A DNA stretch of 51,939 bases from an uncultured Faecalibacterium sp. (GCA_902463905.1 CABQHF010000001.1:1-51939), one strand, 5' to 3'; counted from the stretch's first letter, positions 18,221 through 32,771 are shown. Notes: generated from the letters alone by a model not told the origin. Numbers and translations are program-made.

Positions 18221-21200
18221 TTACTGCGGGTACACATTGCCCTGGGCATCGGTCATCGTGAGGACCCACTGGCCGCCAATCTTTGCAGTGTATACCTGCG
18301 TGTTCGGCGGCAGCTGGACCCACTGGTTCGTGGTGCGGTTAAAAGCATAGTTCTTGTAGTTGCTGTACAACTCCAGCTGCTGGCCATTGTAGCTGACATA
18401 GGCAACAAACTGCGGCTGGGCCTGCTGAGTCTGGGCAGCAGCGGCGTTGCCTGCGCTCTGCCAGACCTTGGGGGTAAAGTTCTTCTTGTACTTCTTGATC
18501 TGGCGCAGCAGACCATCGTAGAAGCGCTTCACATTCTTGCTGTCTTTTGCTTCCAGCGTCTCCACGCTCTTGAGCAAATCTGCAAGATCCTTGCCGCTGT
18601 AGGTCTGATCCAGCTCCCGTGCGATCAGGACATCGGCTTCTTCCTTGCTGCGCTGGCGGAAGGACTCCACCTTTTCTTCCATCTCATGGCGGGGGTCCTC
18701 CTCCGGGTTCAGAGCACGGTAGTTTTCAAAGCCCTGATACAAAGGGTACTGCTCTGCAAAGACATATTTCTTGGGCTGCGCGGTATCGCTGAAGACTTCG
18801 ACCTGCACCATCTCCCGTTTATCCTTGTAGATATACTGGATCTTGGCGATCTTCTTGTTCTCGTCCGGGTCAAATACGCTGTGCTTGTTGGTATTGAGCA
18901 CCTCGAACACGTTGCTGAACAGGCCATCACAATAAGAGCTCAGGTCTGCCTCATAGTGGTTGTGCTCCGCTTCCAGCTCATCCAGACGTGCCAGAGCAGC
19001 CTTGACTGCCTGATACTTCCGGATTTCCTCTGCCACTTTGGCCTGCAGTGCCGGATAGTGCAGGAAGTAATCCTGGCGCACACGTTCCAGCACCTTGCTG
19101 TTGTTCAGTGCAGTATTGCCGTCGTTTTTCAGCTCGAAGTATTCAGCGCCCTCCGCCTTTTCATAGCGGTGTTCCAGCCAGTGGTGCAGGCGTTCCCGCT
19201 CTTCGCTCAGCTTCTTCTTGTTCAGGACCGAGCCCTCTGTCAGGAAGTCTTCCAGTTTGTACTCCGGGACCTCAATAGGCTTGCTCAGCTGCAGCTGATA
19301 GATCGTATTCGGATGCGTCTCGTTGGGTCCTTCCAGGAAGATAGCCCTACACTGCTCACCCTCTTCATAGAGCTTCAGCTGTGCCTCGGTGGTCTTTTTC
19401 TCAAAGAAATCCGGCTTGAAGGAATACGGCAGCGGTACCGGCAGATACGTGCGCCAGTTGACATCCAGATTGTCACTGGTCACGCGCTCCGTTTTTGCAT
19501 ACAGATGGCTGCCAGCACCTGCCGGCTGGTCAGCTGCTTCATCATAATACTTTTTCAGCAGAGTCACACCCTGATATGCGAACAGCGGTACACCACTGAC
19601 AAAGCGCAGGGCAAAAATGCGATCCTTCAGGCCGGTCTTACGCACAGCACAGCCATTGTTTGCAGTTTTTGCATATTGATCTGCAGCCGTACAGACAGCT
19701 GCTGCATTGGCCGGTACCGACAGCGAGCAGCTCTGGAAAGTGACCGTCGGGCTGTTGACATTATAGGTCTGGTCGCACCAGAACATGGGCGTTGCATCGT
19801 TATAGACCTTGGTAATGATTTCCTTCTGAATGATCTCGCCCAGCTTCTGCAGATTGCCATCTGCCTGCGGATATTTCAGGAACAGATAATCCTGCAGGCC
19901 CTTGCTGATCTCTGCATGGAACACCTGCTCCATGTATCTATTGATGAGCCGACCGATCTTGTTCTCATCGTTCTGGAGCCACTCATCCGGGCAGGCCAGG
20001 AATTCCTGCATAAAGTCGCATACCAGCTGCTTGGGGGTCAGGGCATCGATCACCTTGTCCAGGTTTTTCTTAACGTCCTCCAGCTCCAGGATGCGCCAGG
20101 TATATGCAGTCTGGCTCTTGGCTGCGCTGCTGTTCAGCCACACGATATTTTCCTTGAAAGTCGCATCCAGCTCGTCCATCACTGTGATCAACGGGGTAAA
20201 GAATTTCTTTTCCAGATCCGCCAGATCATCTGCAAACTTCCCTGCCATCTTTGCAGTTGCCCGCACCATATTCTGCTGGTTCTTGGCCAGATACCAGTCC
20301 TGCTCCAGCTGCTTGTAGTTCATATAGTGTTTGTTGATATTGAACACGTTTGCAGTTGCCAGCTCTGCGCTGGCCTGTGCCTTTGCCTCTGCCACCGAGT
20401 ACAGTCTGCGATCCAGGGACTCCGCCTCTTCCAGTGCCTGCGCACGGACGCCCAGTGCCCAGGCACGCAGATCGTCGGTCTCACTGTGCAGCAGCCGGGC
20501 TGCATAGTAGGGGCCATAGTTGGGATCCTGTGCCAGCATGCACAGCTCAATGAACACCTTGCCCAGCAGGGAGCCATCGCTGACCTTGGATACCTGGTTG
20601 CTCGTCAGTTCTCCGTTGAGTGCCTCACGGTTTTTGGTATACTTACCACTGCACTGGTCCAGCCAGGCATTGCCGTTCGTCCACCAGGGGTCCGGGGACT
20701 TATTAGCCGGCACCGGGCAGGTAGCCTTCATCACGTTCTTGTCCACATCCGGCAGATTGAGCGGTTCGCAACCTTCCATCATGCGGGCTTCCAGCGCTTC
20801 CGCCGTCAGGCCCCACTTGTTTGCCCAGGTCTTCACGTCATCCGGCGTGATGACCACGTTCTTGCGGCCGGCGCCATTCTCGAACCGGCGGTAGAAGCCT
20901 GCTGCCAGGTAGGTGGAGATCTGGGTCATGGGGATCTCGGCATTGGAAGCGCCCAGGATATGGTAGCTCAGGTTTGCACCGTATTCACGCTTCAGGCCCC
21001 TCACGCCTTGGGTCACGTTGGACAGGTGTCCCTTCATGGTCAGGCCCTGAGAATCAATCTTATCTCCCGCCAGATTGACCTTGGCCAGGTAAGCCATGAC
21101 ATAATCAGCCGACACATTGATGCAATAGCCAAAGCCGTTCGGGATCAGCGTCCCATCCGCCTTCTGGGCAGAGAGCAGATGACACATATCCACCGGCGGT

Positions 21201-32100: not shown

Positions 32101-32771
32101 GCAACCGCCGGGTTTGCAGTAGCCACGTCCGGCAGGAAGAACAGGCCGTCGATCTCACTCTTAAGTCCAAGCTCTTTCATGACATCCCGGATAATATAGC
32201 AGACATCCAGGAAGCAGCCGCCGCCCGTGCCACCGGAAAGGCTGGTGAGCACAAAAGCATTGAGGAACGGGGGCATTCCCTGCAATGCAACCGTGCATTG
32301 CCGTTTGATCTGTTCCCTGAGGGCATCTGCCTTGCTCAGCAGCAAAAAGCGCCCCACCTGACGCACCCCGCCTGTACCCTGGACTATGGACATCTGTCGG
32401 ATCTTATCCACTTCCATCCAGGCCATCACAGGGTCATTCTCAATGCTGTTTTTCTTCAGTGCAACCGCAAGATCCGGCATGGCGATGGAAAAACGCTCTT
32501 CCATGCGCAGGTCTGCTGCGTTCTGCGCACCGCGCTCTTCCGGTTCTTCTGCATCAATGGCCAGGAACTGGATGTGCTGGTACTGGGGGATGGGGCTGTC
32601 CGGATCGTCCGGCTTCAACTGCCGGAACACTTCCCGTTTGAGCTGCGCCAGCGCCGCAATGCCGGTGCCGCCAATACCGATGCAGAGCGATGCTCCCTTC
32701 CTCTGCTCCATCTTGTTCAGGACAGAGCTGATACCGCCATCATTTTCCAGTGAAAGTGAATCATACCGCAT
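29127..32771 (-). CDS. Tubulin/FtsZ-like GTPase-domain protein, copy D (1214 aa, most divergent, Pro-rich tail)
   Basis: CIGIGGTG, FLAIDAE, GTGGVRQVGR, SLSGGTGGG; colinear with A-C. Confidence 0.9.
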   Translation of the reverse strand: MRYDSLSLENDGGISSVLNKMEQRKGASLCIGIGGTGIAALAQLKREVFRQLKPDDPDSPIPQYQHIQFLAIDAEEPEERGAQNAADLRMEERFSIAMPDLAVALKKNSIENDPVMAWMEVDKIRQMSIVQGTGGVRQVGRFLLLSKADALREQIKRQCTVALQGMPPFLNAFVLTSLSGGTGGGCFLDVCYIIRDVMKELGLKSEIDGLFFLPDVATANPAVAAVPAVVEHCFANGYAALKELDYLMGLWEEQDWFCQNYGTFSVKTQDPPVNQCCLLSARKADGSLLADGLERSIHAAVYAIVTRMARGEKPDWDGTRGLRMMGHLSPVKSRSERLRNFFGAIRHYHALGASCAEVPVVQIETYLAAGFYRRFEEGTGHQNVSITPDEVAALADSWGLKAEELKKSLAEGCPELALPDVDKNVMKTMCPVPSDKTPEPWWTAGNAWLDECSGKYVWNRETLNGALTSNLASRNSDASLIGKVFRELCALAQDPDYGPYHAACLLKEGLQSCAKDLRGQAMREAACLYPQLERLDAVRAQASEKLACANRFNVQSRYEAFKQRTQDCYEARNHYNLWMETAKTAGKFAEDLQELDKKFFTPLITMLDALDETFRADEEWLRSGAAKITRAGTWHILELEDVKKHLDKVIEAVTTRQLVTDFVGEVLSAPEEWLENDDNRVGKFISKYMESVFRADVDKGLQDYLFLKYPQAGGNVWALAGIIQKEILARAYDDAKPMFWCDPRYDMESPWNAVHTGALWVPSDSAAIHSAASDYVKSHVPEEYHARKAYENSLNYQIIVQHYAAGVPLYAYRGMPQIKECYDVAAANGKDVGIHLYARTSRGAGNQPDVDWRTYLPEPLTYSFQPELFPEEDTRARLQLYQQGRECGALFLEPEAKANPSRGFSLRLSAPVEIPECRIENFIADAVTLNRRKIEEERARLHDWLEHGRDKENGAEHIWLRNDGYVADQEDLSEQVRQDHFLHKPRLQEKVAAEVEKTRQVQAALQAIDTLEPELEKYVADLKYFCNGLFAGLYQLVNFSGGNVFVQGESKKIARVQYVSEMHREVNLVEIFSDSAQPEIYPFAESFPLYQAFLKYVVLESSSPVRADLNDRVKRFLSRAKTVRDMRFGKRLEAIYTPDRCDEIVRQAGFVFPDKAAEIAHFYAGVAYCIEKFKSEFHPSEWSDYTESAVPPFGTPVLPPVPPMPPQPEQTPEM

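Follow-up and report, generated by a model that had tools for sequence, protein, structure and literature searches.

Four full-length tubulin-like genes stand in tandem in a stretch of DNA from an uncultured Faecalibacterium sp. (GCA_902463905.1, CABQHF010000001.1:1-51939). This stretch, which we call the window, is a complete 51,939-bp contig of a 2.24-Mb, 357-contig metagenome-assembled genome (MAG) that is 78% complete with 5.48% contamination. The four genes, named A to D here, are real, intact, and separately translatable paralogs of the FtsZl1/Tubulin_2 family in the tubulin/FtsZ superfamily, and the array they form is neither an artefact nor decaying. They share an operon with genes for a motif-less tubulin-fold protein (orf627), two DO-GTPases, a GAP1-like protein, and a vWA protein. 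We hold with moderate confidence that the copies have diverged into distinct GTP-binding subunits of a single regulated polymer, with orf627 as a nucleotide-free partner and the DO-GTPases and GAP1-like protein as a switch, in a membrane-proximal accessory system.

An original prediction, made from the DNA of the window, had proposed four tandem open copies, and its coordinates were exact. Long open reading frames (ORFs) of 1268, 1019, 1253, and 1214 codons lie on the minus strand at 18221-22027 (A), 22185-25244 (B), 25347-29108 (C), and 29127-32771 (D). All four matched PF13809 (Tubulin_2) over residues ~30-378 and model positions 1-350 of 356, with E values of 6.8e-55 (A), 8.2e-51 (B), 1.2e-49 (C), and 1.3e-49 (D). 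They scored 187.2, 173.8, 169.9, and 169.8 bits, where the cut-off is 27, and they were the only PF13809 matches in the whole MAG. PF00091 was below its cut-off in these proteins (20 vs 33 bits). A motif scan confirmed that every copy carries the predicted GxGGxG, G[A/T]GG, and SGGTG[S/G]G motifs, in the forms GIGG[TV]G, G[AT]GG, and SGGTG[SG]G; the T1, T3, and T4 motif columns and an NGYAA[ML]KELDY block were intact in all four, where we take GxGGxG to be loop T1 and SGGTGxG to be loop T4. In each gene, AAGGAGGA stands a few bases ahead of an ATG. Because it precedes the ATGs at 22021 and 25205, we place the true starts of A and B there, giving A 1266 amino acids (18221-22021) and B 1006 (22185-25205), the protein sizes on record for a 51,939-bp contig. 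Nearly full-length ORFs of up to 1353 codons also run antisense to almost every long gene (for example 17981-22042, 25332-29090, and 13785-15602, plus strand). Those opposite the tubulin genes are not the genes, those scanned against Pfam, opposite neighboring genes, gave no match, and these open frames are probably an effect of codon usage.

We folded B with AlphaFold2 (AF2), using a 74-sequence alignment; the fold of A, C, and D is taken from identities of 55-84%. The model of B had a mean local confidence (pLDDT) of 87.1 and a global score (pTM) of 0.79. Its best structural matches were CetZ structures (3zid, 4b46, and 4b45; Z 23-24.2), led by 3zid_A with Z 24.2 and a root-mean-square deviation (rmsd) of 3.8 Å over 312 aligned residues. 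BtubB (Z 22.0), AtubA/B (Z 21.2-21.4), tubulins (Z ~21), and FtsZ (2r6r, Z 21.1) also matched, with a Foldseek probability of 1.00. The glycine-rich loops come after the strands at residues 40-46 and 184-191 of the model. The fold-aligned ranges run from residue ~38 to ~831-969, and from these ranges the tubulin C-terminal domain seems to be supplied in part by strands that lie beyond a ~370-residue helical insertion. A profile search against the sequences of solved structures returned only four weak, unrelated matches of coiled-coil type and no solved relative by sequence. Complex prediction with the N-terminal domains of B and C scored 0.00, which is uninformative in either direction.

The gene next to A also encodes a tubulin fold. 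The AF2 model of orf627 (16237-18120, minus strand), built from a 50-sequence alignment, had a pLDDT of 86.8 and matched OdinTubulin (7evh, Z 17.1, rmsd 3.6 over 261 aligned residues), CetZ2 (Z 16.8), FtsZ (Z 16.6), and BtubA (Z 16.4), with TubZ among the Foldseek matches; in the model, the tubulin/FtsZ domain is split by a long helical insertion. The protein contains no G.GG.G, G[AT]GG, or GGTG motif and matched nothing in Pfam, NCBIfam, or PADLOC. Since orf627 has the tubulin fold without the glycine motifs, the operon has genes for five tubulin-fold proteins, of which four keep the motifs intact. A word-index search for homologs found only two. In an hhalign comparison with the tubulin alignment, orf627 alone was too weak, and its positional family reached a probability of 7.5% (E 0.0046), colinear over 185 columns, a result that the fold supersedes. 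In 56 of the 78 related loci described below, the last tubulin gene is followed by an ORF of 620-860 codons, and orf627 sits where Priestia megaterium (below) has a degenerate tubulin gene.

To count copies elsewhere, we scanned genome contigs. A first scan with patterns from the four paralogs gave 190 matches, none of which was confirmed, the patterns being too clade-specific. With a broader alignment, 602 stretches matched the patterns, of which 541 encoded relatives; we retained 78 loci and counted their copies with a hidden Markov model (HMM) of the first 400 residues. We called a locus bounded when a vWA gene lay upstream and a GTPase gene or orf627 downstream, which divided the loci into 39 bounded and 39 unbounded. 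One motif-bearing copy was present in 37 of the 39 bounded loci and three in the other two (L057 and L078, the latter from the isolate Lachnoclostridium sp. An14); no bounded locus had four. Among the unbounded loci, six from the closest relatives (L024, L025, L026, L029, L035, and L059, from Flavonifractor, Pseudoflavonifractor, Faecousia, and others) had at least two copies or a partial second, these numbers being lower bounds because contigs often end inside a tubulin gene. PF13809 was found in one of 24 other genomes of the genus, as a single copy, and in 23 of 400 other genomes sampled from the order, with at most three ORFs (G118). At only 23-28% identity to those of the window, the order-sample proteins are too distant to help much with orthology.

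These counts agree with the expectation, voiced in the original prediction, of one or two copies in such loci; relevant passages of Kaur et al. (2020) likewise give two for Firmicutes. Priestia megaterium (L095) has, in order, vWA, Tubulin_2 (1130 amino acids), a 781-amino-acid protein with a weak Tubulin_2 match (E 0.002), vWA, a 212-amino-acid protein, DO-GTPase2, and GAP1-N2/GAP1-M (937 amino acids), and from this pair of genes we read the published "two" as one canonical and one degenerate copy. Our literature search found no experimental study of FtsZl1/Tubulin_2 and no description of arrays of more than two; it did not extend to the source-data supplement of Kaur et al., which may list such loci. 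The predicted combination of tandem expansion with intact motifs is both correct and unusual. Extra copies elsewhere are often degenerate: in a comparison of motif columns across 24 ORFs from 12 loci, the T3/T4 columns were degenerate in L057 copy 1, L078 copies 1 and 2, both L010 copies, and L025 copy 1.

We built an N-domain tree from a chosen subset of 42 proteins from 31 loci, comprising 24 single-copy loci and all seven with multiple copies. Within every multi-copy locus the copies grouped as a single clade (six changes, the minimum; none of 200 shuffles was as low). On this tree the expansion is lineage-specific and recurrent, or is made to appear so by concerted evolution. Copies adjacent to the pseudo-tubulin gene had short branches compared with the upstream copies: 0.16 vs 0.79 and 1.01 in L057, 0.11 vs 0.67 and 1.38 in L078, and, in the window, 0.097 for A, the shortest end branch of the four, vs 0.68 for D. 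The nearest outgroup with DNA available, L102, was the sole locus from a second metagenome scan. Its tubulin is 71% identical to A and its neighbors are 61-84% identical to theirs, in the order orf186-like PA-rich end, one tubulin gene, orf627, orf206, GTPase, GTPase, orf942. The array thus appears, from these comparisons, to have arisen by tandem amplification of the single motif-bearing gene that adjoins the pseudo-tubulin gene in relatives, and independent expansions in seven lineages suggest that the pressure to expand is general. Two loci labeled Eggerthellaceae (Actinomycetota), L029 (54-5602) and L032, have tubulin genes that nest in the Clostridia clade, which suggests transfer or mis-binning; the two adjacent copies in L029 have practically identical N-domains (branches 0 and 0.002).

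Could the array be an artefact, with variants of one or two genes from different strains joined end to end in a fragmented bin? The 357 contigs and 5.48% contamination of the MAG leave room for this, short reads cope poorly with repeats of up to 539 nt, and the contigs of close relatives often stop within tubulin genes (L024, L025, L026, L029, L031, L033, and L035). The junctions, however, are distinct and in frame. C begins 18 nt past the stop codon of D, and the other two spacers, B-to-A and C-to-B, are ~140-160 nt long, each with its own ribosome-binding site. Because these two spacers are homologous to each other and partly so to the region upstream of D, the duplicated unit probably included its upstream region. 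Synonymous divergence (dS) among A, B, and C is 0.23-0.34 overall and reaches 1.4 locally, well above what strain variation would give, and the three tandem copies of Lachnoclostridium sp. An14 come from an isolate.

Other assemblies also speak for the array. In a tree of 51 proteins out of 123 collected, each paralog paired with its own counterpart: A with P0006 (94%), B with P0009 (91%), C with P0005 (86%), and D with P0012 (93%). P0008 is a further B ortholog, and P0132 is of D type, 99.2% identical to D. P0005, P0006, P0008, and P0132 are all listed with a 34,792-bp contig (for P0132, its longest), and from this shared figure a second assembly very probably carries all four paralog types. 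Contigs from sequencing runs (Logan) were available for relatives only, at small shares (≤0.16), and as contigs they give no measure of depth, copy number, or expression; uncovered stretches carry no meaning. Those from 90-95%-identical relatives in two studies covered 29005-30750 and crossed the D/C junction (X1 and X3), and X1, X3, and X5 covered 25102-25368, which includes the coding start of B, the spacer, and the last 22 nt of C. A 30-mer search of metagenome contigs gave no match. Taken with the junctions and the divergence, the second assembly and the junction-crossing contigs make an artefact extremely improbable.

The original prediction also held that the copies differ mainly at the C terminus. 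Its description of the tails was accurate by residue counts and lengths: A and C have 10 F/W/Y among their final 60 residues, B has no tail and ends ~250 residues sooner than the long forms, and D, with 12 prolines in its final 60 residues, keeps most of the ~250-residue module and has a Pro-rich end where the long forms have a ~70-residue beta-rich tail. An HMM of this tail (73 positions) matched A (E 4e-21) and C (E 2e-20), as well as L024, L025, and L026, and did not match B, D, or orf186. The C-terminal module itself had no match in Pfam or among Protein Data Bank sequences, and the module of C had no usable Protein Atlas match. A Faecousia MAG contains a separate 404-codon ORF after a full-length tubulin gene (L026, 6390-7601) that carries the tail motif (HMM E 1.3e-06); the module can therefore stand as its own gene. 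Short forms of 1001-1036 amino acids, covering 81% of C, are found in many homologs beside forms of 1240-1304 amino acids, and one of each (P0071 and P0030) is listed with a 93,878-bp contig. The short form of B is a conserved length class and not a truncation.

The wider claim was wrong, as A, B, and C differ in blocks over their entire length. In A numbering, the variable blocks fall at residues ~75-150, 195-380, 550-650, 760-1010, and 1150-1268 and alternate with stretches whose DNA is 100% identical; D shows 51% identity to A over its full length. Among A, B, and C, nine tracts with lengths of 217-539 nt were identical, each with an approximate chance probability of <1e-12. The longest, 539 nt (B, 24609-25147, minus strand; C, 28512-29050), has a chance probability of ~4.5e-27, and the others, of 217-498 nt, link A/B, A/C, and B/C (for example, A 19776-20210 and B 22999-23433). 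No identical tract of ≥150 nt was shared with D. These tracts result from gene conversion, which homogenized some blocks of A, B, and C while paralog-specific blocks persisted: in variable windows each copy was nearest to its own ortholog in other assemblies, and in constant windows it was identical to its neighbors in the window. At residues 75-150 of A, for example, B and C are 100% identical in the window, and the corresponding proteins of the other contig share 61% identity. By this comparison the homogenized blocks are specific to the lineage of the window.

Whole-gene ratios of nonsynonymous to synonymous substitution (dN/dS) were 0.33-0.44 for all six pairs, with dS ~0.9-1.05 against D and, between identical tracts, 0.5-1.4 in 50-codon windows. 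These ratios bear on a further explanation, that the extra copies are redundant duplicates, kept for dosage or neutrally and heading to decay, and that only the copy adjoining orf627 matters. The extra upstream copies of other arrays (L057, L078, L010, and L025), which are shorter, long-branched, and often T3/T4-degenerate, would suit such an account, as would the short branch of A. In the window, though, all frames are open over 1006-1266 codons with their motifs intact, a strong ribosome-binding site stands at each copy, every type has an ortholog elsewhere, D is 99.2% conserved, and dN/dS stays at 0.33-0.44 even where dS reaches 0.5-1.4. Redundancy is thus very unlikely.

Diversifying pressure, which the original prediction had proposed together with roles as heteropolymer subunits or specificity variants, was not seen in substitution ratios, as none of the 50-codon windows had a dN/dS >1 and the whole-gene values lie well below it. 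Turnover of another kind was apparent. Between the two assemblies, identity is 99.2% for D, 94.2% for A, 86.6% for B, and 86.1% for C, from which we conclude that A, B, and C appear to turn over much faster than D, largely by recombination. D, historically the most diverged copy as judged by its long branch, is now the most conserved between the two assemblies.

This turnover raises the possibility that the copies are specificity variants, each acting alone with the shared GTPase/GAP1-like/vWA core as sensor, decoy, or effector toward a trigger of its own, the array being a conversion reservoir for cassette-like variation. The contrast between A, B, and C and the steady D fits this account, as do the residue 75-150 block, which occurs in five distinct versions (61-80% identity) among six proteins, the jumps between copies in relatives' contigs, and the fast evolution of upstream copies across the seven expanded lineages. 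Systems of this kind are also described, in the relevant part of Kaur et al. (2020, PMC7159879), as combining constant cores with highly variable components. On the other side stand the lack of any window with dN/dS >1, the position of D outside conversion, and the length classes (short, long, and Pro-tail), which resemble fixed functional forms. Moreover, paralog-specific blocks are conserved across assemblies and not freely reshuffled, A matching P0006 in nearly every variable window. We therefore consider specificity variants rather unlikely, and clearly less so than the other alternatives.

The neighboring genes place the array in a recognizable system. In minus-strand order, the locus consists of vWA, orf186, a hairpin, D, C, B, A, orf627, orf206, two DO-GTPase genes, orf942, and a gene for a zinc-ribbon/transmembrane protein. 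The vWA gene (33524-35635; 703 amino acids, with hydrophobic segments N-terminal and C-proximal and a beta-rich middle; PF13519, E 1.2e-10) and the DO-GTPase genes share their strand with the tubulin genes. The two DO-GTPases, at 13776-15575 (599 amino acids; PF19993 DO-GTPase2, E 1e-10) and 11977-13779 (600 amino acids; E 1.6e-14), are paralogs, and both have N-terminal CxxC...CxxC zinc-ribbon motifs in the form CPYC...CPHC. Most related loci also have a vWA gene upstream of the tubulin gene, and the order vWA, tubulin, ORF of ~630-860 codons, GTPase recurs among them. FtsZl1 genes in operons with vWA and divergent GTPase genes have been described from comparative genomics (Makarova and Koonin, 2010, PMC2875224), and GAP1-N2 DO-GTPase systems include a tubulin theme whose Firmicutes version has two tubulin genes, two vWA genes (the product of one YtkA-fused, that of the other multi-transmembrane), and an FNIII-repeat component (Kaur et al., 2020).

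Two further proteins of the operon are encoded on the minus strand. orf206 (15599-16219), a small conserved protein between the pseudo-tubulin and the GTPases, had no match in Pfam, NCBIfam, or PADLOC; homologs with 30-78% identity occupy the same position in L024, L026, L028, L030, L032, and L102. orf942 (9087-11915), of 942 amino acids with a very polar C terminus, agrees with the Priestia GAP1-N2/GAP1-M protein in position, length (942 vs 937 amino acids), and polar C terminus, and two of its five tblastn-linked homologs had sub-threshold GAP1-N2 matches (E 0.0017 and 0.0076). By position, length, polar tail, and these weak transitive matches we call it GAP1-like. BLASTP comparison of orf942, orf627, and orf206 with the proteins at the equivalent positions in Priestia gave nothing significant.

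Our preferred model is that the four tubulin-like genes are the predicted polymer-forming module of a DO-GTPase/GAP1-like/vWA operon, of a type predicted to act as a membrane-proximal conflict system. A single motif-bearing gene appears to have been amplified in tandem into long forms with a beta-rich tail (A and C), a short form (B), and a long form with a Pro-rich end (D), and all copies are kept by purifying selection, very probably as a set of four in the second assembly as well. Their products would be distinct GTP-binding subunits in one regulated filament or lattice, whose differing C-terminal modules and surface blocks may recruit or recognize different partners. orf627 would then serve as a non-hydrolyzing cap or adaptor, and the paired DO-GTPases with the GAP1-like protein as the switch.

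Several findings weigh against this model. Ordinary short reads cannot span identical tracts of up to 539 nt, so that the assignment of blocks to A, B, and C could be partly wrong; at residues 760-1010 of A, C shares 87% identity with the B type on the other contig and 82% with the C type, although the consistent match of A to P0006 argues against gross scrambling. The four-gene set is present in two assemblies only, and the second contig is identified by the shared 34,792-bp figure. RNA-library contigs came only from a relative at 90-95% identity and could reflect carried-over DNA; one of them covers the region where a B-like gene ends and the following copy begins, which is no proof of transcription. 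orf942 had no Pfam match at E≤1, GAP1-N2 included; a Pfam scan of ORFs of ≥120 codons between 6.4 and 37.5 kb found only one vWA gene, where Priestia has two, and the neighbors gave no fn3-type match that would mark an FNIII-repeat gene. No PADLOC model matched the tubulins or nine of ten neighbors at E≤0.01, and two marginal matches (E 0.01 and 0.0032) were disregarded. Finally, the function of the system is a prediction in the published work as far as it is set out in the relevant sections (PMC2875224 and PMC7159879).

The remaining features of the locus touch the array less directly. orf186 (32914-33474, minus strand) has a short N-terminal region, conserved also in L025 and L026, and then a repeat rich in Pro, Ala, Gly, and Met (6.1 copies of a 63-nt unit, 96% matches, 32932-33312), which may also break assemblies; the PA-rich C terminus of an orf186-like gene precedes the single tubulin gene of L102 (1-110). 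We rejected a homology between the N terminus of orf186 and the aromatic tail found in A and C, as BLASTP found nothing and the tail HMM gave no match. Between orf186 and D lies a terminator-like hairpin (32862-32896, minus strand; 15-bp stem and T run), found by consensus match. The zinc-ribbon protein at 7802-8893 (minus strand; 363 amino acids; PF13240, E 2.6e-07) has one transmembrane-like segment from residue 74 and is a possible membrane component; a further zinc-ribbon/transmembrane gene lies at 36510-37517. The gene at 35959-36375 (plus strand), divergent from the vWA gene and of uncertain membership in the system, is YbjN/TY-Chap1-like (PF10722, E 3.9e-06; PF22551, E 5.5e-05), TY-Chap1 being described in Pfam as type III secretion system and YbjN peptide-binding chaperones. 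A YkuD gene (L,D-transpeptidase homolog, 6406-7779) has a terminal 39-nt x 4.9 repeat at 6518-6722 (minus strand) with AASSKxxAASSKP-type units. The flanks of the locus are chromosomal transport and metabolic genes, with a DDE_3 transposase fragment (3723-4106, plus strand) and an IS200-type transposase (43159-43638, minus strand) a few kb beyond either end of the ~29-kb locus. GC content is uniform across the window (0.52-0.60), and the window has no tRNA genes.

FtsZl1/Tubulin_2 and the DO-GTPase/vWA systems around it are known from comparative genomics only. The locus amounts to a natural experiment, in which one lineage took a predicted GTP-competent subunit from one copy to four, in three C-terminal formats and with a motif-less fifth partner, and it offers copy-specific blocks for proteomics and defined combinations for polymerization assays. 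It also raises the question of whether isotypes mix, as in eukaryotes, or whether paralog arrays serve as variable recognition modules, as in immune systems. A speculative extension, which we think improbable, would join the two: four GTP-competent isotypes and a pseudo-tubulin would form a DO-GTPase-switched, membrane-proximal lattice, and conversion would re-pattern surface blocks such as residues 75-150 to track or evade invaders. If true, bacteria would have evolved an immune "tubulin code" of their own, independently of eukaryotes.

Among known systems, the published FtsZl1/PF13809 family is the nearest. As in the relevant account (PMC2875224), the window proteins combine PF13809 matches above threshold and a tubulin/FtsZ fold with large non-FtsZ extensions and an operon containing vWA and P-loop GTPase genes, and the family is sparse and patchy in distribution, here in the genus and order samples. 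In that account the gene is a single operon component, whereas this locus has four motif-intact tandem copies and a motif-less fifth; no OmpA-family or protein kinase gene was seen here. The tubulin theme of Kaur et al. (2020), in the parts that concern it, shares the DO-GTPases with N-terminal zinc ribbons, of which it has one or two and this locus two. Its Firmicutes version has two tubulin and two vWA genes, whereas we find four plus one tubulin-fold genes and detected one vWA gene; Pfam gave no GAP1-N2/M match for the protein in the GAP1 position, and an FNIII-repeat protein was not detected.

TubZ and PhuZ are likewise bacterial tubulin-fold GTPases on accessory DNA, but they have ~400-500 amino acids and a TubR-like adaptor, whereas the window proteins have 1006-1266 and another domain make-up. 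Neither a TubR-like partner nor a plasmid or phage context was seen in the window, where the neighbors are vWA, GTPases, and unknowns. CetZ proteins of Haloarchaea have ~330-390 amino acids, are encoded by dispersed genes, and have a role in cell shape. They are the closest solved fold and, by the relevant passages of PMC9871819, in which Tubulin_2 sequences serve merely as an outgroup, occur as multiple paralogs per genome. Unlike the window genes, they are not in tandem or in GTPase/vWA operons, and they belong to PF00091 rather than PF13809.

Eukaryotic tubulin isotypes, the alpha, beta, and gamma paralogs, BtubA/B, and Asgard AtubA/B are all cases of several paralogs of one GTP-binding fold. 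The window proteins differ from them in having only 8-16% identity, 2.5-3 times the length, and an apparent ~370-residue helical insertion, and in belonging, as far as the genes tell, to an accessory GTPase/vWA operon and not a cytoskeleton. They resemble them in fold, with the matches to BtubB and AtubA/B given above, and in being paralogs encoded together, and the motif-less orf627 invites an analogy with a cap or nucleator.

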